A DNA stretch of 64,000 bases from an uncultured Gemmatimonadota bacterium (GTDB lineage Bacteria; JAAXHH01). Positions 6,456 through 50,658 of the stretch are shown piece by piece. The stretch is from positions 3,424,001-3,488,000 of the forward strand of contig OX638340.1 of the NCBI GenBank assembly GCA_951812955.1, written 5' to 3'. Numbering within the stretch: the first letter of the stretch is position 1; each line of letters opens with the position of its first letter. The translations under genes were made by a program, and so were the position numbers. The notes under the pieces are model-generated. The model had not been told where the DNA came from. It searched no databases and worked only from the letters and a program-made list of their open reading frames with translations.

Positions 6456-6572
6456 TCGCCGCAAGCTTCCGCGGACCGGGAACCGAACTGGTGGTCTTCG
6501 ATGGCGGGAACCTGCCCCTTATCGCCGCGGATCGGATCATTTTAAAAGCCGTTTCTACCCACGGAGGTCTTC

Positions 6573-8051
6573 ATGCTTTCTCCGCACCAAGGCAACATAC
6601 TTGGGATCGCGCGCAAGGCGATCCTGCCCTTTTCTCTGTCTTTTATCCTGGCGGCTACACTGGCTGTCGCGCTGGCGATTTCAGCGATCTTCCCCCGCGA
6701 AGTCCGCGCCCAGACCCAGACCGAGGACGAGCAGACTGTCACTGCCATCTTCAATGAACGGTTGACGACAGGCGAGATGTACTACCTCCTCGAAGACCTG
6801 TGCAAGAGCATTGGACCGCGCCTGAGTGGTTCCGAAGGCGCAGAACGGGCCGTGGCATGGGCCAAAGAGGTGATGGAAGGCTACGGATTCGACCGCGTGT
6901 ACCTCCAGGAAGTCATGGTGCCCCATTGGGAACGGGGCGATCCGGAGCAGGTGCGGATCGTCGACGTCGAGGAAGGGATGATCGAGCTGCGTGCCCTGGC
7001 CATCGGCGGATCGGTGCCGACCGCGCCGACGGGGATCACGGCTCCGGTGGTCGTGGTCCACTCCATCGAAGAAGTGGAGGAACTCGGACGCGATGCCATT
7101 GAAGGGAAGATCGTTTTCTATAACCGTGCGTTCGACCAGACCGTGATCGGAACGGGAGCCGGATATGGCGGGGCGGTGGGACAGCGGTCCGCCGGTCCGT
7201 CCCAGGCTGCGAAGTATGGCGCCGTGGGCGTCGTAATCCGTTCGGTCGCCTCTAACTTCGACGACGCGCCCCACACCGGCGGCCTGCGTTATCTCGCGGA
7301 CGTGGAGCGCATCCCCGCCGCGGCGCTGGGTTTCCAGTCCGCCGACCGGCTGGTCCGAGTGCTAGAGGAGCAGCCCGACGCCCGGCTTTTCATGCATCTT
7401 TCCAGCAAGTGGCATCCCGACGCCCTGTCGCATAACGTGATCGGCGAGATCCGGGGCAGCGAACGGCCGGACGAGATCATCCTGGTGGGCGGCCACCTCG
7501 ATTCGTGGGACGTGGCCGAAGGCGCCCATGACGACGGCGCCGGCAGCGTCCACGCCATCGGCGTGCTGCGTACCTTCATGAAACTGGGCATACGGCCCCG
7601 GCACACCATCCGGGCCGTCCTGTTCATGAACGAGGAGAATGGTCTCCGCGGCGGCATCAAGTACGCCGAGGTGGCGAAGGAAACGGGTGAGAAGCACCTG
7701 ATCGCCCTGGAGAGCGACGCGGGCGGATTCAGTCCCAGGGGATTCGGCGCGTCCGTCGACGATGATGTCCTCGAACGGTTCCGCTCGTGGCTGCCCCTCT
7801 TTCCCCAGAACACGATCTCCTATATCAACAAGGGCGGTGGCGGGGCCGACATCGGTCCGCTACGACGGGAGACGGGCACGCCGACCATCGGATTCATCCC
7901 GGATTCGCAGCGGGCGTTCGACTACCACCACGCGCCCACCGACGTTTTCGAGGCGGTGAACCGCCGGGAACTGGAACTGGGTGGTGCGTCCATTGCCTCG
8001 CTCATCTACCTGATCGACAAGTACGGCCTCAAGGGCGAGATGGCCCAGTAA
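6573..8051 (+). CDS. M28 family zinc aminopeptidase (secreted or membrane-anchored)
   Basis: 492 aa. N-terminal hydrophobic anchor, PA-like insert, and metal-binding segment HNVIGEIRGSERPDEIILVGGHLDSWDVAEGAHDDGAGS typical of M28 peptidases. Confidence 0.8.
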   Translation: MLSPHQGNILGIARKAILPFSLSFILAATLAVALAISAIFPREVRAQTQTEDEQTVTAIFNERLTTGEMYYLLEDLCKSIGPRLSGSEGAERAVAWAKEVMEGYGFDRVYLQEVMVPHWERGDPEQVRIVDVEEGMIELRALAIGGSVPTAPTGITAPVVVVHSIEEVEELGRDAIEGKIVFYNRAFDQTVIGTGAGYGGAVGQRSAGPSQAAKYGAVGVVIRSVASNFDDAPHTGGLRYLADVERIPAAALGFQSADRLVRVLEEQPDARLFMHLSSKWHPDALSHNVIGEIRGSERPDEIILVGGHLDSWDVAEGAHDDGAGSVHAIGVLRTFMKLGIRPRHTIRAVLFMNEENGLRGGIKYAEVAKETGEKHLIALESDAGGFSPRGFGASVDDDVLERFRSWLPLFPQNTISYINKGGGGADIGPLRRETGTPTIGFIPDSQRAFDYHHAPTDVFEAVNRRELELGGASIASLIYLIDKYGLKGEMAQ

Positions 8052-25058: not shown

Positions 25059-25098
25059 ATAAACCAGACAAACCACATTCAACAGGAAGAGGTCATGC

Positions 25099-25965
25099 AT
25101 GAGTTTCGGTAACGGGGCCTACAGGTACGAGGTGCAGGAAAACTGGTGGAAGCTTCCTGAAGGGTGGTCCTTCGGATGGATAACCGGAGTCGCCTGCGAT
25201 TCAAAGGACCAGGTGTACGTCTATTCCCGAAGCGAGCATCCCCTGGTGGTCTTCGACCGCGACGGAACGTTTGTCAAGACCATCGGCGACGGCATACTGA
25301 AGGACGCTCATGGTATATACATCGACGGAGAGGACAACATCTTCCTGGTCGACTGGCTGGACCACTGCGTCCGCAAGTTCGACGCGGACGGGAACCAGGT
25401 CCTGGTGATTGGCACGCCCGGTGTTCCGAGCGACAACGACGGTGATCCTTTCCGCAAGCCGACGGAAGCGGTCGTCGCGCCGAACGGAGATATCTACGTG
25501 TCCGACGGGTACGACAACGCCCGGGTACACCGGTACGACGCCGAAGGGAACCACATCCACTCCTGGGGCAGCTGGGGTGACGGCCCCTCCCAGTTCGCGC
25601 TGAGCCACTGCGTCCGCATTGACCGGCATGACCGGCTGTGGGTGTGTGATCGTGAAAACCAGCGCATCCAGCTATTCGACCTGGAAGGCAAGTTTATCGA
25701 GGAGCGACACGTTCCTGGCAAACCCGACACCGTCTACTTTGATCCGGTAGAAGATATAGCGTACGTGGCCGAGCTGGAACAACAGGTGGGTATCTACACC
25801 CTGGACGGCGACCTGGTCAGCAGCTGGGGCGGCGGTAAGCGGAGCGATCGGCCGGGCGAATTCGCCGGCTGTCCCCACGGCATCTGGATGGACTCCCACG
25901 GCGACCTCTATGTCGGCGAAGTTCAGGCCGACGCCAGGCTGCAGAAGTTCGTGAGATCGAGGTAA
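25099..25965 (+). CDS. NHL-repeat beta-propeller protein
   Basis: 288 aa. Repeated ...VYVSDGYDNARVHRYD..., ...LWVCDRENQRIQLFD..., ...DLYVGEV... blades typical of NHL repeats. Confidence 0.7.
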   Translation: MSFGNGAYRYEVQENWWKLPEGWSFGWITGVACDSKDQVYVYSRSEHPLVVFDRDGTFVKTIGDGILKDAHGIYIDGEDNIFLVDWLDHCVRKFDADGNQVLVIGTPGVPSDNDGDPFRKPTEAVVAPNGDIYVSDGYDNARVHRYDAEGNHIHSWGSWGDGPSQFALSHCVRIDRHDRLWVCDRENQRIQLFDLEGKFIEERHVPGKPDTVYFDPVEDIAYVAELEQQVGIYTLDGDLVSSWGGGKRSDRPGEFAGCPHGIWMDSHGDLYVGEVQADARLQKFVRSR

Positions 25966-26210: not shown

Positions 26211-28613
26211 ATGACCGATACTGACGAACGACATCGTGATACCCGCACGGACCGAGACCGGCTCGTGAGGCTGAGCCAGGCCAGTCTGCGCATAAGCGAA
26301 AGCCTGGATGTCGATACCGTGCTGCACGAGGTCGTGGAGAGCGCGTGCGAATTAACGGGTGCCGCAGCCGGGGGGATCGTCGCGGTGGATCACACAGGAA
26401 GTGTAAAGGATTTCGTTACGTATGGGGTGCGTCCCGAGGAGTACCAGAAGTGTCTTGACCTGCCGATCGGACCGAGATTGTGGGAAACCCTTCGCCGGTT
26501 GACGCAACCGCTAAGAATCAACGACCTTTCGTCCCATCTCGTATCGCAGGGTTTTCCTGACGATCCATGGCTGGCCCGGAGCTTTCTGGGTGTGCCTGTT
26601 CGGCATCAGGGCGATTTCATCGGATTCTTCTGTCTTACCGACAAGAGAGCTGGTGAGACCTTCACTGACGAAGACGAGGGGATCCTGGTCCTGTTCGCTT
26701 CTCAGGCCGCCGCCGCGATTGTCAATGCCCGCAGGCATGGCGAAATGCAGCGGGCAAGGGCCGACCTCGAAGTTTTGATCGACACCTCTCCCGTGGGTGT
26801 AGTGGTATTCGATGCCAGAACCGGAAAAATAACATCGTATAACCGGGAGACGCAACGCATTGTGGAGGAGCTCCTGGATCCTGGCCAGCCGACCGAAGAA
26901 CTAATGGACATACTCAGTGTGCAGCGCGCCGATGGACGTGAGATCGTGCTGGAGGACTCCGATCCGGCCGAGGTGTTCATGGACGCCACGGCGATCCGGG
27001 CCGAGGAGATTGTCCTCGTCGTTCCGGACGGACGAAAAATATCCACGCTGGTCAACGCCACCCCGATCTGCACCGAAAAGGGCGAGGTGGAGACGGTGGT
27101 CGTCACCTTGCAGGACATGACGTCCCGGGAGGACCTCGAGCGCATGCGTACCCAGTTCCTGGGCATGGTGAGTCACGAACTGAGAGCGCCGCTTACGTCG
27201 ATCAAGGGTTGCGCGGCTACTGCGTTGGGGACCCCGTCGATACTGGATCCGGCCGAGGTCCGGCAGTTTTTCCGCATCATCGATGAACAGGCGGATAACA
27301 TGCGTGAACTGATCGGCGACCTGCTGGATGCGGTCCACATCGATACAGGCACACTGTCTGTAACCCCGGAACCTGTGGAACTGGCTATCATGCTGGACCA
27401 GGCCCGTAACATGTACTTGAGCAGCGGAAGGAGAAGTCCGGTCAGTGTTGATCTGCCGGCTGATCTGCCGAAGGTGAAGGCGGACCGGCAGCGCGTCATA
27501 CAGGTGCTGGTGAATCTCCTATCCAATGCCTCCCGGCACGCGCCCGAGTCGTCTACGATACGGGTACAGGTGGTGCAGGAAGACTACCATGTAGCAATTT
27601 CAGTAATCGACGAGGGCCGGGGGATACCAGAGGATCGCCTGCCCCACCTGTTCCAGAAATTCGTTCAAAGTGGCCGGGAGGACCGCGGCCGCGGCGTAGG
27701 GGAGGGCCTCGGGCTGGCGATATGCAAGGGTCTGGTAGAAGCGCATGGTGGCCGAATCTGGGCTGAAAGCGAAGCCGACGGACTCGGCACGCGATTCACG
27801 TTTACTTTACCCGTGGTTGAAGTGGCCAAAGCAGAATTCGAAGTGACTTCAACAGGGCCCGAAGTGACTTCAACAGGGTCCGAAGTGACTTCAGCACGGG
27901 AGAAAGAGGGCAAGGATCGGAGAGTCCGGCATACGCCTTGCATACTCGCGGTGGATGACGATCCGATGGCTCTGGGACAGATCCGGGAGATCCTCAAGGG
28001 CGCGGGATTCACGCCACTTATCACGGGAGATCCCAAAGAGGTGCCGGACCTGATAGAAACCCGTCAGCCCGACCTGGTACTGCTGGATCTGCTGCTGCCG
28101 AAGAGCGATGGGATCGAACTGATGCAAAGCGAGCCTGCCTTGGCTGATCAGCCGGTCATCTTCCTGTCGGCGTACGGCCGGGACGAGACCATAGTCAAGG
28201 CCCTGGAAGTGGGTGCGGTCGACTACATAGTCAAGCCGTTCTCACCGTCGGAACTCGTGGCCAGGATACAGTCGGCACTTCGTAAGCATGACAGCGCGCC
28301 AGAGCCATTTCAGTCCGGCAGTCTCTATATCAACTATGAAGAACGGAATGCCGTTCTGGATGGCCGGCCACTGAAGCTGACCGCCACCGAGTACGGTCTG
28401 CTCAGGTTGCTTTCAGTCAACGCGGGTCGGGTGGTCACCCATGACAAGCTGCTACGTAGTGTGTGGCGGTCGAGTAAACCTGGTGACGCCCGGGTGGTGC
28501 ACGCGTTCGTGAAGAAACTCCGCCAGAAGCTGGGCGATGAAAGCAGCAATCCTACCTACATTTTCACCGAACACCGGGTTGGCTACCGAATGGCACGACC
28601 GGATGATGCATAA
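26211..28613 (+). CDS. all-in-one two-component regulator: GAF-PAS sensor / histidine kinase / receiver / OmpR-type winged-helix DNA-binding domain
   Basis: 800 aa. GAF (LRISESLDVDTVLHEVVESACELTGAAAGGIVAVD...). PAS. HisKA H-box MVSHELRAPLTSIKG. HATPase_c (VIDEGRGIP...GLGLAICKGLVEAHGG). Linker with 21-bp repeats (EVTSTGPEVTSTGSEVTS). REC (ILAVDDDPMALGQIREIL...VLLDLLLP). C-terminal trans_reg_C (LTATEYGLLRLL...VKKLRQKL...YIFTEHRVGYRM). Confidence 0.85.
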   Translation: MTDTDERHRDTRTDRDRLVRLSQASLRISESLDVDTVLHEVVESACELTGAAAGGIVAVDHTGSVKDFVTYGVRPEEYQKCLDLPIGPRLWETLRRLTQPLRINDLSSHLVSQGFPDDPWLARSFLGVPVRHQGDFIGFFCLTDKRAGETFTDEDEGILVLFASQAAAAIVNARRHGEMQRARADLEVLIDTSPVGVVVFDARTGKITSYNRETQRIVEELLDPGQPTEELMDILSVQRADGREIVLEDSDPAEVFMDATAIRAEEIVLVVPDGRKISTLVNATPICTEKGEVETVVVTLQDMTSREDLERMRTQFLGMVSHELRAPLTSIKGCAATALGTPSILDPAEVRQFFRIIDEQADNMRELIGDLLDAVHIDTGTLSVTPEPVELAIMLDQARNMYLSSGRRSPVSVDLPADLPKVKADRQRVIQVLVNLLSNASRHAPESSTIRVQVVQEDYHVAISVIDEGRGIPEDRLPHLFQKFVQSGREDRGRGVGEGLGLAICKGLVEAHGGRIWAESEADGLGTRFTFTLPVVEVAKAEFEVTSTGPEVTSTGSEVTSAREKEGKDRRVRHTPCILAVDDDPMALGQIREILKGAGFTPLITGDPKEVPDLIETRQPDLVLLDLLLPKSDGIELMQSEPALADQPVIFLSAYGRDETIVKALEVGAVDYIVKPFSPSELVARIQSALRKHDSAPEPFQSGSLYINYEERNAVLDGRPLKLTATEYGLLRLLSVNAGRVVTHDKLLRSVWRSSKPGDARVVHAFVKKLRQKLGDESSNPTYIFTEHRVGYRMARPDDA

Positions 28614-28892
28614 AGAGTGGATTTTCGACGAACTGAAGTGTGAATTACCGACAACGTAATGTGTGGATTTACGACGGAACGCACTTCTTTGAATACGATC
28701 AGTCCATTACGGCATCGGGCCGCTCCTCCTGACCTGTCGATGCACCTTTCCTGCTGGAAGCTATTTCACCGGTAATTGTCTTTCCATGTGGCCCCCTCAC
28801 TTTCTCCTTGATAATATCCCTGCCGTTTCATCATTTTAGCTATTCGTTTTTGACACTCCATTGATACTCCTGACTCCAGTATAGGGGCGTTC

Positions 28893-29723
28893 ATGCGTAT
28901 CATCGACCCCCACACCCACGTCTGGATCAACGACCCCGCCTTTCCCTGGCCGGCGGAAAGTACAGGCCAGGTCCCCGAGGACAGGACGGCGGAGATGCTC
29001 CTTGACCTGATGGACCGTCACGGCGTGGAGAAGACTGTCCTGGTTCAGTATATCGGATTCCGATGGGACAACTCGTACGTGTCCCACGTTCTGCGCAAGT
29101 ACCCCGACAAATTCGCTGGGGTCTGCCGCGTCAATCCCGAAGATCCGGCCGCGCCGGACCACCTGAGCCACTGGGTGGAAGAACACGGATTCCAAGGGGT
29201 GCGGCTCAGCCCCTCCGCGGGACCGGAAGGAGACTGGTTCACGGGTCCCCTCATGCCGCCGATCTTCCGGCGCGCCGAGGACCTTCGTGTACCACTGCTC
29301 ATGCTCACGCGTCCCGGACGTCTTACGGACCTGGCCCGGCTTTTGGACCGCTTTCCGGATCTCGACGTGGTCGTGGACCACATGGCCGACGCGCGCCCCG
29401 ACCGTCCGGAGGAGATCCGGGCCGTCCTCGACCTGGCGCGGTACCCTAACGTCTACGTGAAGATCAGCCATACGTGGTCCATTTCGAATCAGGACTATCC
29501 CTGGCCGGACACCCATGACATGGTCGAGGCGGTATACCAGGCCTTCGGAGGACGCCGTATCATGTGGAGCACCGACTGGCCTGTCTGCCTCCCGAAGGCC
29601 GATTACGGCCAGACCCTTTCCGTCGTCCGCGACGAGATGCGGTTCATCTCACCTGAAGATCTGGTCCGCGTGCTGGGTGGCACGGCCCTGGGGCTGTGGA
29701 CCTTCGAAGATCGGAAGGCCTGA
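28893..29723 (+). CDS. amidohydrolase_2 family metal-dependent hydrolase (sugar-acid lactonase-like TIM barrel)
   Basis: MRIIDPHTHVWINDPAFPWP... HxH and downstream His/Asp pattern of PF04909. Confidence 0.7.
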   Translation: MRIIDPHTHVWINDPAFPWPAESTGQVPEDRTAEMLLDLMDRHGVEKTVLVQYIGFRWDNSYVSHVLRKYPDKFAGVCRVNPEDPAAPDHLSHWVEEHGFQGVRLSPSAGPEGDWFTGPLMPPIFRRAEDLRVPLLMLTRPGRLTDLARLLDRFPDLDVVVDHMADARPDRPEEIRAVLDLARYPNVYVKISHTWSISNQDYPWPDTHDMVEAVYQAFGGRRIMWSTDWPVCLPKADYGQTLSVVRDEMRFISPEDLVRVLGGTALGLWTFEDRKA

Positions 29724-30013
29724 AGTGATCAATCGGCCAGGGGCACGATTCCAGGGCACGCTGCCGGGCCGCATGCGGAATGGTCACCGCGTGAACCTTG
29801 ATTATATTAGTCGGAAGAGTCATGGCAGTTCTCGAATAAAAAACTTAAAACCGCAGAAACTGCGGCATTTTCGGTATCCGCAGCAACTTTAGCATCTGGA
29901 GTACCAGTAGCATCCGCGTGAACCGCGTGAACCGCGTCAACTGCGGCACCTGTAGCAACCACGGCATCGATAGCATATGATGAACGCACGATATCACGCT
30001 CAAAGGAGTACCC

Positions 30014-30781
30014 ATGAATATCCTGATCACCGGCGCCGCGAGCAGGCTGGGACAAGCGGTGGCCGAGGCCCTTCAAGGCCACATGCTTCGCCTCATGGAC
30101 GAGTCGCCCGTCGACCTGCCCGGGGAGGGCGATACCGTCGACGTGCCTGCGGAAAGCGATTCCGTCGAAGGCAGCCTGCTGGACCAGGACTTCGTATGGC
30201 GGGCGGTCCGCGGCATGGAAGCCGTCATCCACACGGGCGAGCCTCCTCAGGACCTTCCCGAGTCCGACGTGGAGCGCGAGAAGCACCTCCTGGAACTGGC
30301 TACGAGGGGCACCCACCAGCTCTTCAAGGCCGCTGTGGAGGTCGGCGTCAAGCGCTTCGTCTACGGCGGAACCCTCGACCTCTTCCGGCCCTATCCCGAC
30401 GATGTTTACATCAGCGAGCTTTGGAAGCCGCTGCCCGAACCGGACATGCCGGCCATGTCCCGCTATCTGGGAGAGCACACCGCCCGGGAATTCGCCCGGG
30501 ACTACATGGTGACGGTCACGGGGCTTCGTCTGGGGACGCTGGTCTGCGAGGAGGAAGTCGCCGGCCAGGCGCCCGACCTGCTGTGGCTGGACTACCGCGA
30601 CGCCGCCCAGGCCTTCAAACTGGCCCTGGAGCGCGACGCCTCGGACCAGGTATGGTGGACGAGCCGTTACGCCATTTACCACGTCTGCGCCGACCTGGAG
30701 AATCCGAAATACCTCATCAACCAGGCCCGCAACCTCGGCTACGCGCCGGTCCACAACTTCGCCGCAAACTGGAAGGACTGA
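30014..30781 (+). CDS. NAD-dependent epimerase/dehydratase-like SDR
   Basis: MNILITGAASRLGQAVAEAL Rossmann start. 255 aa. Confidence 0.7.
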   Translation: MNILITGAASRLGQAVAEALQGHMLRLMDESPVDLPGEGDTVDVPAESDSVEGSLLDQDFVWRAVRGMEAVIHTGEPPQDLPESDVEREKHLLELATRGTHQLFKAAVEVGVKRFVYGGTLDLFRPYPDDVYISELWKPLPEPDMPAMSRYLGEHTAREFARDYMVTVTGLRLGTLVCEEEVAGQAPDLLWLDYRDAAQAFKLALERDASDQVWWTSRYAIYHVCADLENPKYLINQARNLGYAPVHNFAANWKD

Positions 30782-30906
30782 GGCGCGGCAACGGAAATGA
30801 AATCCCGGAGCGGCCATGGCCTGCCGGTCGTTGTAACCGGCCGTAGTAAACGGTAGTTGCACCGGCCGCGCTAGTCCGGCGTTTCAACAATCGTGAGGAG
30901 ACGTAC

Positions 30907-31629
30907 TTGAAGAAAATCCTGCTGCTTGGCGCGTCCGGACTCATCGCGCCACATATCATCCCTGTGCTTGAGAAGGATTACGACCTGCGGCTGGCCGACA
31001 TCAAGGACCATCCGGACGGAAAACCGATCCAAACCGTGGACGTGCGCGACTACGGCCAGGTGCGTGAGGCCGTGGAGGGCATGGACGCGGTCATGAATTT
31101 CACGGTCCTGCGCCATGACGACACGCTCAGTTTTCAGGTCAATACCATCGGGGCGTGGAACGTCATGAAAGCGGTGGCCGACGCCGGCATCAAGAAAGTG
31201 ATCCATACCGGTCCAGCCCAGACGCTCCTGTTGTATGCCCATGATATGGACGTCCCGGTCGACGCTCCCGACGCGCCGTCCAGCGACTACTACTTCATCA
31301 CCAAGCATCTTTCAAACGAGATCGTCCGGAGCTTCGCCCGGCGGCACGAAATCCACACGGTCTGCTACCTGTTCCAGGGCCTGGCGCCCCGGCCGACTGA
31401 ACCCGCCAGCAAAACGTCGACCCGGGACTTCCTCATCATCTATGACGACCTGGCCGTGGCCTGCCGCCAGGGACTCGAACTCCCTTCGGTGCCCGGCTTC
31501 TACCAGGCGTTCAACCTGCACAGCCATTACGGGCCGGGCAAGTACAACCTGGAAAAGGCAGAGCGCATCCTGGGATACGCCCCGCAGGAGGCCTGGTGGG
31601 ATTGGCAGCGGAGGCCGACGGAAGATTGA
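30907..31629 (+). CDS. NAD-dependent epimerase/dehydratase-like SDR (paralog of the preceding gene)
   Basis: TTG start after GAGGAG RBS. KKILLLGASGLIAPHIIPVL Rossmann motif. Overall similarity to the 30014 product. Confidence 0.65.
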   Translation: MKKILLLGASGLIAPHIIPVLEKDYDLRLADIKDHPDGKPIQTVDVRDYGQVREAVEGMDAVMNFTVLRHDDTLSFQVNTIGAWNVMKAVADAGIKKVIHTGPAQTLLLYAHDMDVPVDAPDAPSSDYYFITKHLSNEIVRSFARRHEIHTVCYLFQGLAPRPTEPASKTSTRDFLIIYDDLAVACRQGLELPSVPGFYQAFNLHSHYGPGKYNLEKAERILGYAPQEAWWDWQRRPTED

Positions 31630-31756
31630 GGTTGGTGGACCTGGCAGCGGCGGCCAGTGGATCAGCGGACGCAGGATTCGGTTGTTTTAAGTAGCGTGGG
31701 GACGGGAACAGGTATTAAGGAGTTGACCAACGACGGGTAATTATGCAGTGTCTATT

Positions 31757-33517: not shown

Positions 33518-33700
33518 ACCCGGCCGATGTGCGCGCAACGCCGAAACCCAGAGTCCGGCAATCCGGACCTCGCCCGCCCGGACGCGTCCCCCCAGGACGC
33601 CTCCCGACAGGACCCCGCCCGCCCGGGCGCCTCCCCCCCTGACCCCGCGCGGCAGGACCGGGCCTGGTGGGAGTTCGTCGACCGGTCGCGGCGCGAGTCC

Positions 33701-35848
33701 ATGCCCTTCGAGGCCCACCTGGCGGCTTTCAGGCGCATATTCGAAGGGCGCCGGCCGGAGGACGGGCCGCCCGTGGTCTGGGCGCCCGACGAATCGGTAC
33801 GCCGCCGGTCCAATCTCCAGGCGAGCATGGCAGCCGTGGGCATCGACGAGTATGACGATTTCCACGCATGGTCCGTCCGCGACCGCACCGCCTTCTGGAC
33901 CCACACCCTCGAACGGCTCGGGATCGTATTCACGAAACCTCCGGACGCCATTCTGGACACGGGTGGAAGCGTCCGGGACCCCCGGTGGCTGCCGGGCGCG
34001 GAACTCAACATCGTCGACAGCTGCTTCACCGCGGATCCCGCCCGTCCCGCGGTCGTCACGCCCGGTCCGGACGGCCAGCCGCTTGTCAGGACATCCTACG
34101 GCGAACTGGAAGGCCTCGTCAACCGCGTCGCCAACGGCCTGCGCGACCGGAACCTGGCGCCCGGTCAGGCCATCGCGCTCTACATGCCGCTGAACCTGGA
34201 ATGCGTGATCGCCTACCTGGCCATCATCCGCGCGGGTTCGCACGTTGTCTCCATCGCCGACAGCTTCCCGGTATCGGAGGTCCGGCGTCGCATGGCCATT
34301 GCCGGCGCGAGCTGTGCGGTCACCATGGACCGGTACGTCCGCTCGGGCAAGACCATACCGCTCTACGACACGGTCGCCGAGGCGGGCGCGTCCACGATCA
34401 TCGTCGTGCCGTCCGGCGGCGCCACACCAGTGGACGATGTCCTGTCTCCAGGTTGCGCCGCGAAATCGGGCGATGTGCCGCCACCGGGCGCTGACGATTC
34501 CGCGGCCACATCAGATTCGTCCCGGCACCACCCCGCCGACGCTTCCACTGCCGCATCGAACGCGCCCCGACTCCGTCCGGGCGACATCGCCTGGTCCGAC
34601 CTCCTCTCCTCTGAAGACGTCTTTGAATCAGTGACGGGCGACCCCTATCGCACGACCAATATCCTGTTCTCCTCGGGAACCACCGGCGAGCCGAAGGCCA
34701 TTCCGTGGAACCATCTGACCCCCATCAAGAGCGCCATGGACGGATACTACCACCAGGACGTCCACGGGGACGACGTCACAACCTGGCCGACCAACATCGG
34801 CTGGATGATGGGGCCGTGGCTCATCTACGCCACCCTGATCAACGGCGCGTGTATGGCCCTGTATCCGGGCGCTGCCAATACCGCCGAATACCTCCGGTTC
34901 CTCCGGCGCGCCGGGGTTACCATGCAGGGCGTCATTCCCTCCCTGGTGCGGACCTGGAGGCGCGGCGGCGCGGCCGAGAACATCGACTGGCCGTCCATCC
35001 GCGTATTCAGTTCAACGGGTGAGCCCGCCAGCCGGGCCGACTACCTGTGGCTCATGAGCCGGGCCGGTTACCGGGCGCCCGTGATCGAATACCTCGGCGG
35101 CACCGAGATAGGGGGCGGCCACCTGGCCTGCACGGTGTTGCAACCTTGCTCACCCGCGGTATTTACCACGGCGAACCTGGGTGTGGATTTCGCTATCCTG
35201 GACGAGACCGGCGCGGAGGTCGGAGAGGACGGTACGGGCGAACTCTTCCTTATGCCCCCCGCATTGGGCATGTCTCAGCGGCTGCTCAACGGAGACCACG
35301 ACGCAGTCTATTACGAAGGCTGTCCGGCCGGACCTGAAGGCAGAATACTGCGTAGGCACGGGGACAATACGCAGAGACTTCACCAGGGTCGTTTCCGGGC
35401 CCAGGGAAGGGCGGACGACGGAATGAACCTGGGCGGCATCAAGATCAGCCCCCTTGAACTGGAACGGATCGTGGACGGACACCCCGCGGTCTACGAGAGC
35501 GCGGCCGTAGCGGTGCAGCCCGAGGGGGAAGGGGCGGAAAGGCTCGTCGTTTTCGTCGTTCAAGAAGGCGGAGACGGCCCCGCAAGTTTTCGAGCAGATG
35601 CCAGGGCGGGTTCATCGCCGATTAGCCAGGCCGACACATCCCCTGCCGTCCCAACCGATTCACATGCCGGCCTTGATCACGATCTCGACCCCAATGCGCT
35701 TAAGTCGGAACTCCAGGACATGGTCTCCTCCGGACTGAACCCGTTGTTCAAAATCTACCACGTCATCGTAGTGGACGAACTCCCCCATACCGCTTCAGGC
35801 AAGCTGGTCCGCCGTATTCTGAGAGATCGGATGAAGTCAGGCGACTAG
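33701..35848 (+). CDS. AMP-dependent synthetase/ligase (acyl- or acetyl-CoA synthetase-like)
   Basis: AMP-binding motifs ILFSSGTTGEPKAI, YGGTEIGGG, and C-terminal GKLVRRIL. Start taken at MPFEAHL (33701). An in-frame upstream ATG at 33527 would add a Pro/Asp-rich repeat extension. A low-complexity insert sits near the C-terminus. Confidence 0.7.
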   Translation: MPFEAHLAAFRRIFEGRRPEDGPPVVWAPDESVRRRSNLQASMAAVGIDEYDDFHAWSVRDRTAFWTHTLERLGIVFTKPPDAILDTGGSVRDPRWLPGAELNIVDSCFTADPARPAVVTPGPDGQPLVRTSYGELEGLVNRVANGLRDRNLAPGQAIALYMPLNLECVIAYLAIIRAGSHVVSIADSFPVSEVRRRMAIAGASCAVTMDRYVRSGKTIPLYDTVAEAGASTIIVVPSGGATPVDDVLSPGCAAKSGDVPPPGADDSAATSDSSRHHPADASTAASNAPRLRPGDIAWSDLLSSEDVFESVTGDPYRTTNILFSSGTTGEPKAIPWNHLTPIKSAMDGYYHQDVHGDDVTTWPTNIGWMMGPWLIYATLINGACMALYPGAANTAEYLRFLRRAGVTMQGVIPSLVRTWRRGGAAENIDWPSIRVFSSTGEPASRADYLWLMSRAGYRAPVIEYLGGTEIGGGHLACTVLQPCSPAVFTTANLGVDFAILDETGAEVGEDGTGELFLMPPALGMSQRLLNGDHDAVYYEGCPAGPEGRILRRHGDNTQRLHQGRFRAQGRADDGMNLGGIKISPLELERIVDGHPAVYESAAVAVQPEGEGAERLVVFVVQEGGDGPASFRADARAGSSPISQADTSPAVPTDSHAGLDHDLDPNALKSELQDMVSSGLNPLFKIYHVIVVDELPHTASGKLVRRILRDRMKSGD

Positions 35849-35867
35849 GCTTCTGTCGCTCAGCGCT

Positions 35868-35952
35868 GCTCTGCGAGTCAGTTTTAAAACGCTCACTCCC
35901 GTCCTTGCGTCAACGGCTTGACTGCCCCCTCCACGCGTCCGAGCCTTATTCT
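35868..35952. repeat. ~85-bp copy of the 3' end of the small coiled-coil gene family, fused to a ctcgaacttttt promoter-element core
   Basis: gctctgcgagtcag...gctcactcccgtccttgcgtcaacggcttgactgccccctccacgcgtccgagcc aligns nearly base-for-base with 37833-37917 (the 3' coding end of the 37850..38227 minus gene) and partly with 49185-49230. It is followed by ttattctcgaacttttt. Confidence 0.7.
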
Positions 35953-36167
35953 CGAACTTTTTACGAAAACACGAAAAACACCCTTTGACATATACCTTTA
36001 TTTATCAGATATTTCACAATACCTCATGACGGAGTAATCATATCTCCGGAAGTATCCTTCGGTAAAGTAGGTAACACTCTTCCAGCCAACGGCTTTCCCA
36101 TCCTTACTAAAATCGTCAAATGGGCGTGTAGGTATAATCCCACATTGTCCCCTCCGAAAGGATTGTC

Positions 36168-37343
36168 ATGACACGCTTGTGTCTTAGACTCGTGTGCATT
36201 GCGTTACTGCCGGCATCCCTGTTTGTGCTTTCCACCTGCGGCAAGGATAGTTCCACCGCCCCAAGCGCTCCAACACCCCCTGCCCCGGTACCCGCCAGCA
36301 TCGAAATCACACCGGCGTCCGCTACGTTGAACGCCATCGATCAGACCGTTCAGTTGGCCCCAATGGTACTTGACGAGAATGGTGCTGAGATCGCCGATGC
36401 TTCGGTTACGTGGACTAGTGGCGCCGTGGACGTTGCGACGGTTAACGATCAAGGCCTGGTCACGGCGGTCAACAACGGGTCCGCGGTGATCACAGCACAG
36501 TCGGGCAGTCTTTCGGCATCGGCGAGTATCACCGTCTCGCAGGTGCCGGTCCGTATCGTAATCGAGATCCCGACCACGGGCCGGCTCATGCAGACGGACA
36601 CGGGCCAGAACATACTGGTAGCCACGGTACAGGATAGAAACGGACATCCGGTGGCCGGAGCGGAAGTGACATGGTCGAGCAGCGATGAATCCGTAGCGAC
36701 CGTCAGCGATCAAGGAGTGGTAAACGAGGTCTCGAGCGGGAGAACTCAGATCACAGCCCGATCGGGAGACCTGTCAGACTCGGTTAATTATGGTGTCTCG
36801 GCAAGGATTGCACTGGCCAGGTTGTATGAGGCGACAAATGGTCCGGATTGGACACAAAATACGAACTGGTTGACTGATGCACCGGTGGAAGAATGGCACG
36901 GTGTTACGGTCGGCTTGTTTGGACAGCTTACGATACTGAACCTGAACAATAACAACCTGGGTGGTTCGATTCCGATGGATGTGGGACAACTGTGGCCTCT
37001 TGAAGAACTGAATCTGGGATCCAATCGGATATCGGGCGAGATTCCCGCAACGATAGGAAAGCTGGAATATCTCGGCAAACTGAACCTGAGCGACAACCAG
37101 TTGTCAGGTGAGATACCGGCCGAACTTGGTTACCTTGCTAACCTCCGGGGTTTATTCCTACAAGACAATGAATCATTGAGCGGACCTCTGCCTGATTCGT
37201 TTACGAATCTCGAGCTTCAAACCCTGAACCTGGATGGAACAGAGCTTTGCGTGCCGGCCAGCTCGGAGTTCCAGACCTGGATCGAAGGGATTGAAAACGT
37301 AACCGCTTCCCCGTGCCCCAATCCGGAGACGGAAGTCCCCTGA
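36168..37343 (+). CDS. surface lipoprotein: 2x Big_2 (bacterial Ig-like) domains + plant-type LRR module (LRR paralog 1)
   Basis: Lipobox LFVLSTCGKDS. Pro-rich linker. Big_2 motifs (ASATLNAIDQTVQL...VTWTSGAVDVATVNDQGLVTAVNNGSAVITAQSG). LRRNT-like cap (LYEATNGPDWTQNTNWLTDAPVEEWHGVT). LxxLxLxxNxLSGxIPxxLG repeats. Cys-containing C-terminal cap (GTELCVPASSEFQTWIEGIENVTASPCP). Confidence 0.8.
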   Translation: MTRLCLRLVCIALLPASLFVLSTCGKDSSTAPSAPTPPAPVPASIEITPASATLNAIDQTVQLAPMVLDENGAEIADASVTWTSGAVDVATVNDQGLVTAVNNGSAVITAQSGSLSASASITVSQVPVRIVIEIPTTGRLMQTDTGQNILVATVQDRNGHPVAGAEVTWSSSDESVATVSDQGVVNEVSSGRTQITARSGDLSDSVNYGVSARIALARLYEATNGPDWTQNTNWLTDAPVEEWHGVTVGLFGQLTILNLNNNNLGGSIPMDVGQLWPLEELNLGSNRISGEIPATIGKLEYLGKLNLSDNQLSGEIPAELGYLANLRGLFLQDNESLSGPLPDSFTNLELQTLNLDGTELCVPASSEFQTWIEGIENVTASPCPNPETEVP

Positions 37344-37544
37344 CGGCACCTTACATTGTGGTCTGAGCTGGTTTTCCGAGTGAATTGAAGCGGGATACAC
37401 CGCGCACAAGCCGTTATTCATAGCGTACATCCTAGTAGTTACGGCAGTGAAAAGAACACAGACGGCGGCAAGCGCCTGGATGAATACGATCTGTTTCCGA
37501 ACACTCGAACTTCTCGCGACAATTAGATCTGCTCTTGCCCGTTG

Positions 37545-37790
37545 TTACTGCGTGTGCTCTCCGTGAACGCCGGCCGGGTGTTGACCTTTGACGTCCTGAT
37601 CTCCCAGGGTCTGGGGAGAATATGGCTACGCCAACCACAAACTGGTGCGCAGCCTGATTAAATCGCTCCGCCGCAAGATCGGTGACGACGCGCGCACTCC
37701 GGACTACATCCTCAACGTGCGCGGGGTCGGGTACCGAATGGCCCGGTCCGTGGAACTCAATGTGGAAACTCTAGCGCGGGATATCCCTGC
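37545..37790 (+). pseudogene. remnant of the C-terminal (OmpR-type wHTH) end of a paralogous all-in-one histidine-kinase regulator
   Basis: DNA aligns with 48556-48790 of the intact paralog (LRVLSVNAGRV..., ...LRRKIGDDARTPDYILNVRGVGYRMARSVELNVE) but carries a 2-nt deletion/frameshift and lacks everything upstream. Preceded at ~37440-37500 by a minus-strand fragment of the coiled-coil gene N-terminus. Confidence 0.6.
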
Positions 37791-37849
37791 GGTTTAATGC
37801 ACCTGGTGCGGATGACCTCGCTCCGCTCTGCAGATCAGGTCCATAAGGC

Positions 37850-38227
37850 TCACTCCCGGCCTTCCGTCAACGCCCTGACCTCCCCCTCCACGCGTCCAAG
37901 CCGCTTGTTCATTGCATGTATTTCCACCTGGATGGCTGCATGCTCTTCGCGCATCTCTTCTCTGATGGCGGCGTGCTCTTCGCGCATCTCTTCACGCATT
38001 GAGGTGTGCTCTTCGCGCATCTCTTCTCTGATGGCGGCGTGCTCTTCACGCATCGCATTTCTGAACGATAGGAATTGCTCCTGCATTTCCGTCCGAAACG
38101 ACCGGAATTCCTCTCGCATTTCGATGCGCAGTTCGCTGGTGGGTTGCCTGGTCCAGGTGATTACAGCAAAAACGAGGATGCCGACGGCCGCCAGCGCCTG
38201 GATGAATACGATCAGTTTCTGATACAT
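37850..38227 (-). CDS. small membrane-anchored coiled-coil protein with 33-bp in-frame repeats (EEMREEHAAIR x4), DUF1640-like
   Basis: 125 aa. N-terminal TM (LIVFIQALAAVGILVFAVI). Tandem heptad repeats. C-terminal HAMNKRLGRVEGEV resembles the FTRMDKRFDTLEKKV of the 48848 ORF. Confidence 0.5.
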   Translation of the reverse strand: MYQKLIVFIQALAAVGILVFAVITWTRQPTSELRIEMREEFRSFRTEMQEQFLSFRNAMREEHAAIREEMREEHTSMREEMREEHAAIREEMREEHAAIQVEIHAMNKRLGRVEGEVRALTEGRE

Positions 38228-38400
38228 TCCGTTCCTCTCTACCGTTCCTCTTTATCGTACCTCTCTACCGTTCCTCTTTATCGTTCCTCGTCCACAGTTC
38301 AGTACGATTGAAGAAACCGGATCACACCCCGTACGCCGCATCCGATACACCGCATCTCATACGCCGTATTCCGTACACCGCAACCCCTACCGCCTCCCAT

Positions 38401-38735
38401 GCGACGTGTCTGTTATAAGTAACAGTCGGAGTCTAATTGGAATTCTCGAACTTTTTCTTATGATAAATCGATTTTCAAACACCAATTCTTCACTTACGAC
38501 ATGTCTGCTAATAGCAATAGTCAGCTTCCAATCAGGAACATCAAAATTTCCTGACATATTTCGATTGTCACTTATTCTTCACCTACGACGTGTCTGTTAT
38601 TAGTAACAGTCGGGGATCATTCATATATCTAGAACTATGTTTATTGTAATACGACTTTTACATGATTACATTGCCAATGACGTGTATGTTATTTATACGG
38701 AGTCCAATCGGAAATCTCGAGTTTTTCTGCAATAA
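38401..38735. repeat. cluster of 4 copies (2 well conserved, 2 degenerate) of a dispersed ~55-100-bp AT-rich element (consensus acgacgtgtCTGTtattagtaACAGtcggagtccaatcggaatctcgaactttttt)
   Basis: Copies start at about 38401, 38487 (degenerate), 38583 and 38676. The copies at 38410-38425 and 38595-38610 contain perfect CTGT-N8-ACAG palindromes. The cluster lies in the divergent region between the coiled-coil gene and LRR paralog 2. Confidence 0.7.
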
Positions 38736-38923
38736 TAATAAGAAGTACTTTTGTCTCATTCCTTCATCCATTGAACAATGCGCAAAACACCTTGTTAGTA
38801 CAAACACAACCATCGAAACAACTTAAATAAATCAGGTATCACCCTCCTGGCCTTCAGTTTACCCGTTTTTACTTAAAATCAAAGAGTGGGTAATTGTCTT
38901 TTTCCCCTTCCCGAAGGATTGTC

Positions 38924-49093: not shown

Positions 49094-49246
49094 TTCAATT
49101 CCCCTTTCTAACCAATGTATTTAAACAGGCATATATCGACACCATATCGGTATATGACATGTATATGCTACATAAGGAAATCAACTCTCCACGCGTTCGA
49201 GCCTTCTGTTCATTGCGTTGAATGATCAATATTCAACCCAGTTCGA

Positions 49247-49385
49247 CACACCTGTTATTGGTTATAGTCGGAATCCAATCCGGAATCTCGAACGTTTTTT
49301 AAAAATAATGTTAAAAAGTTCCGTTACCTCGTTCCTTCGTCCAAAGAACATCGGGCGAACATCCCGAATGAAGAATCAAGGCGCC
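49247..49385. repeat. copy G of the dispersed element (orphan LRR-gene leader) upstream of the thiolase gene, preceded at 49185-49230 by a coiled-coil-gene 3' fragment
   Basis: cctgttattggttatagtcggaatccaatccggaatctcgaacgttttttaaaaataatgttaaaaagttccgttacctcgttccttcgtccaaagaacatcgggcgaacatcc. Confidence 0.65.
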
Positions 49386-49536
49386 CCTTGATTCGTCCTC
49401 GTATATAGGATATTAATACCATAATATAGAGCACGCTCATCACAGTTGATCTCGCTCTGGCTAGCACGCTCATCACAGTTGAACTCGCACTGGCTATGTA
49501 CTCGAGATTCTGATCCGAGATAGAAAGGCACCCGAA

Positions 49537-50658
49537 ATGAACAACAAGCGCGTCGCCATCGTCGCGGGCGGCCGGACGCCCTTCATAAAGTCGGGCAAGG
49601 CCTTCGCCGAAATCGATTCCCTGGCCATGGCCGTCCACGCCACACGGGGCATGCTGGACCGGAGCGGGATCGACCTGGAGCTGATCGAATCGGTCGTTTT
49701 CGGCACGATGACGCCCGATCCCTTGAAGCCCAACCTGGCCCGGGAGCTCGTCTTCGAGGCGGGGCTGCCGATCCGCGCCGAGGCCCATACCGTGGCTTCC
49801 TACTGCATCACTGGCCTGCGGGCGGTCACGGTCGTCGCCGACGCCATCGCCGGCGGCCGCATCGACGTGGGCCTGGCAGGCGGGGTCGATTCGCTGACGC
49901 GCGCCTCCATGGACCTCTTCCGCGAGCCGTCCACCGGCCTGAACATGGGCCAGCACATGGAGTTGACGTGCAAGGAGTGGGATATTCCGCGCGAAAGGCA
50001 GGACGAGGTGGCCCTGGCCAGCCACCGCAACGCCGTGGCCGCGCGCGAGAAGCTGGCCGGGGAAATCCACCCGCTGGCGGGTGAGGAAGCCGATTCGGGA
50101 CCGAGGGCGGACACCTCGCTCGAGGCCCTGGCCGCGCTGAAGCCCGTATTCGACCCGGAAAACGGCACGCTCACGGCGGGGAATTCGTCGCCTGTGACCG
50201 ACGGCGCCGCGGCGGTGCTGCTGATGAGCGAGGAGAAAGCCGCTCAATGCGGCCTGGAACCGCTGGCGTACATCGGGGGCATGGCCTACGCCGCCCATGA
50301 CCCTGCCGAGGGCCTGCTCATGGCGCCGGCCATCGCCGTGCCCCGGCTCCTGGAAAGCCGGAACCTGGCCATGGCCGACATGGACCTGGTGGAGATCCAC
50401 GAAGCCTTCGCGGCCCAGGCGTTGGCCAGCGCGGCGGCGTGGGAAAGGGGCTGGAAGGGTGCGCCGACGGGCCCGGTCGACTGGACCCGCGTGAACGTCA
50501 ACGGCAGTTCAATCGCCGTGGGCCATCCGTGGGCGGCCACCGGTACACGCATCCTGACGACCCTGGCCAACGAGATGGCCAGGCGCGACGCCCGCTACGG
50601 CCTGGTCAGCATCTGCGCCGCTGGAGCCATGGCGGGCGCGTTCCTGCTGGAGCGGTAG
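49537..50658 (+). CDS. thiolase (acetyl-CoA C-acyltransferase) family
   Basis: 373 aa. N-terminal VAIVAGGRTPF. Active-site regions NSSPVTDGAAAVLLMSEE and C-terminal NVNGSSIAVGHPWAATGTRIL...ICAAGAMAGAFLLE. Confidence 0.8.
   Translation: MNNKRVAIVAGGRTPFIKSGKAFAEIDSLAMAVHATRGMLDRSGIDLELIESVVFGTMTPDPLKPNLARELVFEAGLPIRAEAHTVASYCITGLRAVTVVADAIAGGRIDVGLAGGVDSLTRASMDLFREPSTGLNMGQHMELTCKEWDIPRERQDEVALASHRNAVAAREKLAGEIHPLAGEEADSGPRADTSLEALAALKPVFDPENGTLTAGNSSPVTDGAAAVLLMSEEKAAQCGLEPLAYIGGMAYAAHDPAEGLLMAPAIAVPRLLESRNLAMADMDLVEIHEAFAAQALASAAAWERGWKGAPTGPVDWTRVNVNGSSIAVGHPWAATGTRILTTLANEMARRDARYGLVSICAAGAMAGAFLLER

Follow-up and report, generated by a model that had tools for sequence, protein, structure and literature searches.

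Pseudogene fragments formed by deletional decay are found as gene remnants in the intergenic DNA of bacteria, e.g., Rickettsia and Mycobacterium leprae. The hybrid two-component systems of Bacteroides are regulators consisting of one polypeptide, with a periplasmic sensor and an AraC-type output, and function in the use of glycans. Internalin gene clusters of Listeria are variable loci of leucine-rich-repeat (LRR) surface proteins.

The locus described here belongs to an uncultured Gemmatimonadota bacterium and lies in a stretch of 64,000 nucleotides, the whole of which was analysed and is called the window in the following. Between the gene for an LRR protein (LRR paralog 1, 36168-37343, plus strand) and a small coiled-coil gene (37850-38227, minus strand) is a gap of 506 bp (37344-37849), in which a sensor-regulator gene and a small gene for a membrane coiled-coil protein are each represented by a disabled stub, probably left by old deletions. 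The stubs are a real feature of an ordinary kind, namely gene remnants which are truncated, frameshifted and still in their original neighbourhood. As in Rickettsia and M. leprae, such pieces are found in spacer-like DNA, in their original orientation, and successive deletions would have produced them; unlike there, the decay is no genome-wide reduction but a local one, in a single hypervariable island, and all three gene types still have intact paralogs within 11 kb. The parent gene of the regulator stub would resemble the Bacteroides hybrids in that sensor, kinase, receiver and DNA-binding domains are joined and surface-protein genes are adjacent, but it would differ by a cytoplasmic-type GAF-PAS sensor, an OmpR-type output and no evident link to glycans. 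Compared with the winged-helix domain of the OmpR/PhoB type (PF00486), the repaired stub matches the profile, but lacks the N-terminal beta-sheet, the receiver, the upstream domains and a start codon. The surroundings share with the internalin clusters tandem LRR paralogs, mosaic similarity and a gene content which varies between close relatives; in contrast to the internalins, the repeats are combined with Big_2, one paralog has a Peptidase_M66-like domain, and a small, conserved coiled-coil membrane protein is encoded between the LRR genes, where a common intergenic element occurs as well.

Stubs in the gap and their intact counterparts

The window was compared with loci of relatives, which come from marine and host-associated metagenome assemblies and are referred to by their numbers (L001, etc.); the closer contigs were reached via proteins matching the repaired regulator tail and the coiled-coil protein. 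The features of the gap and its surroundings are listed below.

35863-35945, minus strand: coiled-coil 3' stub, i.e., last 17 codons, stop codon and ~30 nt downstream; encodes RLGRVEGAVKPLTQGRE, followed by the stop
35948-35969, plus strand: element core ATTCTCGAACTTTTT..., abutting the 3' stub, upstream of LRR paralog 1
36168-37343, plus strand: LRR paralog 1, intact, 391 aa, Big_2 and leucine-rich repeats (Pfam)
37344-37429, no strand: spacer of 86 nt, 3' of LRR paralog 1; orthologous copies in L081 and L168, and L172 aligns across it
37430-37506, minus strand: coiled-coil N-terminal stub, approximately the first 25 codons, with the membrane segment
37503-37522, plus strand: element core copy CTCGAACTTCTCGCGACAA, where the upstream element of a kinase would sit
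37523-37544, no strand: putative deletion-junction filler; identical in L081 and L168, present in L172
37545-37797, plus strand: regulator tail stub, last 84 codons, with a +1 frameshift
37798-37849, no strand: native convergent spacer of 52 nt from the regulator stop to the coiled-coil stop; the equivalent in L172 has 40 nt
37850-38227, minus strand: intact coiled-coil gene, 125 aa, N-terminal membrane segment and coiled coil, with 33-nt tandem repeats
46414-48807, plus strand: intact hybrid kinase/response regulator/winged-helix paralog, 797 aa, GAF-PAS-HisKA-HATPase_c-receiver-Trans_reg_C (Pfam)

The closest match of the tail stub in the window is the 3' end of the gene 46414-48807: with blastn, 37545-37767 aligned to 48556-48777 (82.1% identity over 223 nt, E 3e-59), and with laxer scoring 37545-37796 aligned to 48556-48806 (79% over 252 nt). 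The stub contains the last 84 of 797 codons, including the stop codon TAA (37795-37797), and has a single net +1 frameshift, which is an extra G in the run at 37607-37609. One frame reads LLLRVLSVNAGRVLTFDVLISQ, and past the extra G the next frame reads VWGEYGYANHKLVRSLIKSLRRKIGDDARTPDYILNVRGVGYRMARS...AV and the stop; by tblastn these were recovered as separate pieces, one per frame, which are 75% and 73% identical at the protein level (E 6e-29). A complete PF00486 domain in one reading frame was not detected in the stub, as only manual repair of the frame yielded a match to positions 13-77 of the 77 positions of Trans_reg_C (63 bits), corresponding to helix 1 through the wing of an OmpR-type domain, followed by the C-terminal extension and the stop. 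The core frame is closed by a TGA at 37596-37598. Only one ORF enters the conserved core, which is also the longest real ORF of the tail (37645-37797, Trans_reg_C positions 48-77 only); its GTG start lies inside the recognition helix and is not preceded by a ribosome-binding motif. Homology begins at 37545; no GAF, PAS, HisKA, HATPase_c or receiver domain is present upstream of the tail, where the coiled-coil stub and unrelated sequence are located. The 38 nt to the left of the tail were considered as a vestige of an LRR 3' end, similar to a junction in L083, but the similarity (~60% over 38 nt) was too weak. One junction string of the gap is GATCTGTTTCCGAACACTCGAACTTCTCGCGACAATTAGATCTGCTCTTGCCCGTTGTTACTGCG, and another is the sequence from the stop codon of LRR paralog 1 to the end of the 86-nt spacer.

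The N-terminal stub shares the minus strand with the intact coiled-coil gene and corresponds to 38152-38229, or about 25 of the 125 codons. Its best part, 37461-37500, is 90% identical to 38183-38222 over 40 nt (blastn within the window, E 8e-10), and a wider match of 37430-37500 to 38152-38222 showed 75% over 71 nt. Residues 3-24, which are the membrane-spanning segment, were recovered by tblastn with 68% amino acid identity. The initial ATG has become GTG and one nucleotide is deleted in codon 2, and thus the frame of the membrane segment is without a start codon. Another stub, which represents the 3' end of such a gene, adjoins the AMP-binding gene 33527-35848 (stop at 35848); 35863-35945 is 80% identical to 37820-37902 over 83 nt, and residues 95-125 of the coiled-coil protein were detected there by tblastn. 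At the site of this 3' stub, next to the AMP-binding gene, L170, L171 and L002 have an intact coiled-coil gene. The 3' stub and the N-terminal stub could stem either from one gene, whose ends would have been separated by the LRR paralog 1 cassette, or from two different genes. Neither of them shows the full layout of the family, in which an N-terminal membrane segment precedes a coiled coil with ...NKRLGRVEGEV... at its end (homologs P0028-P0075, uncurated). Besides the counterparts in L081, L168 and L172, no matches were obtained for 37344-37429 in the window and the relatives' loci, and no further homologs of 37523-37544 were found in the same search.

An earlier note on this DNA had proposed gene remnants between LRR paralog 1 and the coiled-coil gene: a minus-strand copy of the coiled-coil N-terminus at ~37440-37500 and a plus-strand, frameshifted copy of the last ~80 codons of an HK-wHTH paralog at 37545-37790. 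The alignments described above bear this out, the former being present as 37430-37506 (75-90% identity) and the latter as 84 codons at 37545-37797 (79-82%); the E values of 8e-10 and 3e-59 are not those of chance similarity, which the note had put at less than ~60% identity over short stretches. The third stub, 35863-35945, had been missed, and position 37850, taken as the start of the intact coiled-coil gene, is actually its stop-codon end, with the start codon at 38227-38225.

Several additional observations concern the coiled-coil genes. A 33-nt tandem repeat occurs in five copies inside the intact gene (37908-38087) and encodes units of MREEH(A/T)AIREE; the repeat array is the main cause of the different lengths of the protein among relatives (70, 103, 114, 117, 125, 136 and 154 aa). 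Two short tandem arrays precede the start codon immediately on the 5' side, at 38230-38294 (13-nt) and at 38325-38380 (14-nt period). An exact look-up of the protein in the searched collection gave no match. A fourth, tiny coiled-coil stub, from the C-terminal region, is present at 49187-49216 (30 nt, 90% identical to the corresponding part of the coiled-coil gene in L169 and L170); this vestige lies between an 81-aa ORF (48848-49093, minus strand) and the thiolase gene, where L172, L164 and L166 have an intact coiled-coil gene. For 45724-45767, which was also suspected to be such a stub, no significant match was obtained.

As for the regulators, two further hybrid kinase-receiver-winged-helix paralogs are located in the window, a complete one at 26211-28613 (800 aa) and one at 62942-64000, which runs off the window end. 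L168 aligns to 28892-31702 and to 25062-25959, but not to the intervening part with the paralog 26211-28613, which is kept in L171. Upstream of the kinase gene, at 46270-46351, a unit of ~75 nt (GGTGAAATTCACGCGATTTT..CTGCAGAAGT...GGACCGGACGCGGGCGGCCG) occurs once in the window; two to three tandem copies are present in L169 (reverse complement, 795-1000) and L170 (reverse complement, 2080-2240).

Shared junctions and the parent arrangement in relatives

Two assemblies, L081 (a 585-kb contig) and L168 (a 95-kb scaffold), are collinear with the window, beginning in the flank and including the coiled-coil gene; over 37340-37860 both show 99% identity, and their junctions as well as the extra G are those of the window. 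On a 950-kb scaffold, L172, the sequence can be followed with 95% identity from the end of LRR paralog 1 across the 86-nt spacer, the stub and the core to nucleotide 33 of the tail, and other genes come next. Because the junctions recur in these assemblies, in L172 the left one, the arrangement of the gap is genuine and predates the divergence of these genomes. A scan of metagenome contigs with the repaired tail yielded only distant response regulators with at most 59% identity. The window and L168 differ across the gap by four substitutions and one indel, which are too few for a test of neutrality. In L081, 11 clustered and mostly synonymous substitutions against both the window and L168 are found at 6490-6580 (corresponding to window positions 37660-37745), some of which match the state of the intact kinase tail, and the rest of the gap is almost identical; this patch looks like a gene-conversion tract from another copy of the tail.

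The intact parent arrangement, for which orthologous loci had been suggested as a comparison, was encountered in L172 and L169. L172 has a full-length kinase of 787 aa (82% amino acid identity to 46414-48807) and, convergent with it, an intact coiled-coil gene; 40 nt separate the two stop codons, and the thiolase gene comes next. The order in L169 is a coiled-coil gene, ~130 nt, an element with its core, ~600 nt and a full-length kinase; the order in the gap, i.e., coiled-coil start, core at 37503-37522 and tail, is collinear with it. No relative was found with a complete kinase in the interval from LRR paralog 1 to this coiled-coil gene, and therefore the deletion is inferred and the ancestral state is a reconstruction; the same applies to the former presence of a full-length regulator at exactly this place, and to the number and order of the deletions.

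The gap would be the collapsed, non-functional remains of a coiled-coil/element/regulator stretch of ~3.5 kb, an interpretation to which a probability of roughly 75% may be assigned. The ancestral stretch would have consisted of a coiled-coil gene on the minus strand, the repeated element and a GAF-PAS-kinase-receiver-winged helix regulator on the plus strand, which ended convergently against the still intact coiled-coil gene 37850-38227. At least three deletions, rather than one, would have reduced the coiled-coil/element/kinase unit to ~370 nt. One of them would have taken the body and the 3' end of the left coiled-coil gene and left its ~25 first codons at 37430-37506; another would have removed ~200 nt between the start of this gene and the element core at 37503; and a third, of ~2.7 kb, would have begun immediately beyond the core and ended near codon 714 of the regulator, so that the last 84 codons were spared. 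The 1-nt insertion in the tail and the 1-nt deletion in the coiled-coil stub would have followed afterwards. Coiled-coil genes, the ~60-150-nt element and paralogous tails are repeated sequences which offer plentiful substrate for recombination in the island. The earlier suggestion that a deletion or recombination had removed a regulator gene, which is itself an inference, thus gains support from the native convergent position of the tail, the collinearity with L169 and the codon bias described below; it needs refinement insofar as the event is old, would have comprised several steps and is one of many losses at this locus.

Origin and possible function of the truncated tail

In ungapped blocks, the tail and the intact paralog differ by 36 mismatches, which are distributed over codon positions 3, 1 and 2 as 25 : 7 : 4 (P = 1e-5 versus an even spread), and 22 of the 33 changed codons are synonymous. 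Since most mismatches are in third positions, the stub would appear to derive from a paralog which was once functional. It shares an I in SLIK and a V in GVGYRM with other truncated tails, and both residues are absent from the intact paralog of the window and from its orthologs in L081 and L169. Together these data point to a separate paralog lineage, which was probably working for most of its divergence. Gene conversion by working paralogs could have contributed part of the third-position bias and is a confounder here (cf. the patch in L081).

Near matches of the repaired tail in the protein database were all short ORFs. Among the relatives, truncated winged-helix tails are present as ORFs of 68-83 aa:

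L082, 137-382
L164, 147-398
L166, 2115-2321
L083, 4652-4894

In L082, L164 and L166 the 190 nt upstream of the tail are 73-80% identical, and the differences in a 55-codon core at positions 1/2/3 amount to 3/4/12, 8/3/20 and 5/5/21 (dN/dS 0.04-0.10 at dS 0.4-1.0). The tail of L083 is likewise under strong purifying selection on the core of recognition helix and wing (four tails, dN/dS 0.04-0.10). As purifying selection acts on it in three more distant relatives, a truncated tail is not necessarily junk. The tails of L082, L164 and L166 could represent either a mini-protein under selection or repeated conversion by working paralogs. It seems doubtful, if conceivable, that an ORF of ~60-80 residues with recognition helix and wing is kept by selection near coiled-coil and LRR genes and that the copy in the window is a recently frameshifted member of this set; being frameshifted, the tail of the window is outside any such functional set.

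Alternatively, the tail could be the by-product of a duplication or cassette transfer, whose edge inside a regulator gene caused only the last 84 codons to be copied, together with the adjacent coiled-coil gene; it would never have belonged to a working gene at this site, and no regulator would have been lost. Truncated tails in L083 are indeed located between successive LRR genes, as if in a repeated unit, one of them beginning 6 nt past an LRR stop codon, and in the window a segment of 1957 nt is flanked by direct repeats of 83 nt, which represent the coiled-coil 3' end. However, a fragment which was neutral since it was copied (half-neutral history) should have ~44% of its mismatches in third positions, and the observed share was 69% (P = 0.002). 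The coiled-coil start and the core are collinear with the order in L169, so that collapse in place fits better than an imported edge, and the residues in SLIK and GVGYRM group the tail with truncated tails and not with the intact paralog of the window. Taken together, we regard a mere duplication as rather improbable.

Still less credit is given to the suggestion that the region was retained for a function, be it as a mini-protein of recognition helix and wing, or as a terminator, 3' untranslated region or regulator binding site for the convergent genes. It could find support in the low dN/dS (0.03-0.12) of a 46-codon tail core in every pair of tails, in the fact that the truncation junction, a Shine-Dalgarno-like GGGAG and an ATG are common to L082, L164 and L166, whose core differences are mainly in third positions, and in the near identity of the window, L081 and L168 across the gap. 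In the window, however, the core frame is closed by the TGA mentioned above, and the first start is the GTG at 37645. The near identity is not special, since the genomes are mosaics with many bins of 0-2 mismatches, including coding ones; constraint by an RNA or a regulatory site, considered because of 1 mismatch per 300 nt between 37350-37650 and L081, was rejected in view of equally clean coding bins and the three-way mosaic. Moreover, L168 retains only 47 nt of the tail of the sister kinase and L170 none, and so the tails are dispensable. The gap contains no usable ORF, neither stub being translatable as such. With Rfam 15 no match at E <= 1 was obtained for 35800-38950 on both strands; terminator-like sites in the gap were no more frequent than in shuffles, and a promoter scan gave nothing specific for the gap. 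Signs of an insertion sequence or a miniature mobile element were not found, as inverted repeats were absent from 35800-38950 and a transposase-like ORF from the gap. Nothing in these sequence searches indicates a function of the gap, which would agree with the interpretation as collapsed remains.

Chance similarity or an assembly artefact can be regarded as refuted, although the paralogous repeats flanking the gap can confuse assemblers, since E values of 3e-59 and 8e-10 oppose chance, and the same sequence, junctions and frameshift in two independent assemblies from other samples, and the left junction in L172, mean that the arrangement is neither an artefact nor a recent event.

The repeated element and the variable island

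The element has a length of 60-150 nt and consists of a palindrome, CTGTTAT-NAG-TAACAG, followed by AGTCGGAG, the core ATTCTCGAACTTTTT and then GTTCCGTTACCTCGTTCC... The core next to the 3' stub has an exact 15-mer (35948-35962) in common with 38442-38456. The core at 37503-37522, which abuts the 5' stub, is identical to 35951-35969 in 15 of 19 positions and contains the exact 9-mer CTCGAACTT, which would be expected ~0.004 times per 506 nt (estimate from 4^9). Seven copies of the 13-nt core are present in the window versus 0.8 expected, five of them in the island and all of these on the plus strand. Other copies of the element are located at 38395-38786 (three or four), 43836-43920, 45768-45880 and 49252-49364; it is found at each of the cassette boundaries in the island and invariably on the plus strand. 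Among the 172 fetched loci, the core was confined to six close relatives; the element was found also in L002 (from the coiled-coil gene to the thiolase gene) and in L081, L083 and L168-L171. No Rfam match was obtained for it. The element is a candidate for a binding site of a regulator, a promoter or a substrate for recombination and could serve as any of these. In a related reading, as doubtful as that of a selected truncated tail, the island would be built of arrayed cassettes with the core at their boundaries, as a putative site for recombination or regulator binding.

The island extends over 13.7 kb (35849-49536), is flanked by two conserved genes, the AMP-binding gene and a thiolase gene (49537-50658), and contains genes for LRR surface proteins, regulators and coiled-coil genes. 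In L001-L004, the four nearest species-level genomes, the thiolase gene follows the AMP-binding gene directly or within 1-2 kb; since the two are (nearly) adjacent there, 35849-49536 is regarded as an island. They are adjacent in L003 and L004, L002 has only small coiled-coil genes between them, and L001 has a gene for an AAA_21/AbiEii-like ATPase at the island site. LRR paralog 1 is paralogous to 38894-43750 and 43907-45514. LRR paralog 2 (38894-43750, 1618 aa) contains a Peptidase_M66-like segment (residues 1343-1428) after Big_2 and LRR arrays, and LRR/M66 genes similar to it occur in relatives in either orientation. Just 3' of LRR paralog 3 is an ORF of 35 codons (45617-45724, MAYNRKIILGLITAVLVTPTELQAVSPYDYKVPRP) with a hydrophobic stretch, for which no Pfam match was found.

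Close relatives with the same left part differ completely on the right side of the coiled-coil gene. Two LRR genes (7.3 kb) are located there in the window, an AhpC-like gene and small ORFs in L081, and another LRR/M66 gene, oppositely oriented, in L168; in L169 this part is missing, and 38456 is joined to 45768 at copies of the element. The sister kinase 46414-48807 is intact in the window, L169 and L172, and has been damaged or lost in several relatives: two internal deletions are present in L081, 46793-48760 is missing in L168, the whole coding region is gone in L170, and only the tail remains in L164 and in L166. Comparison of these loci shows that the same kinase was lost independently in five other ways among relatives. 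The divergence between the window, L081 and L168 is a mosaic, with many 100-nt bins of 0-2 mismatches and patches of 10-23. That the locus is recombinationally active, as stated in the earlier note, is borne out by the different right-hand cassettes, the different kinase deletions in L081, L168 and L170, and the conversion-like patch in L081.

The stubs alone matter little; their value is that of markers for a former order of coiled-coil gene, element, regulator and coiled-coil gene. Together with the relatives, they show that in this uncultured marine lineage an all-in-one regulator beside LRR surface-protein genes was lost repeatedly while cassettes were swapped. For this reason the 13.7-kb island, rather than the gap, is the object worth studying, as a natural experiment on the loss of regulators and the turnover of surface-protein cassettes, and a small winged-helix-derived protein may have its source there as well.
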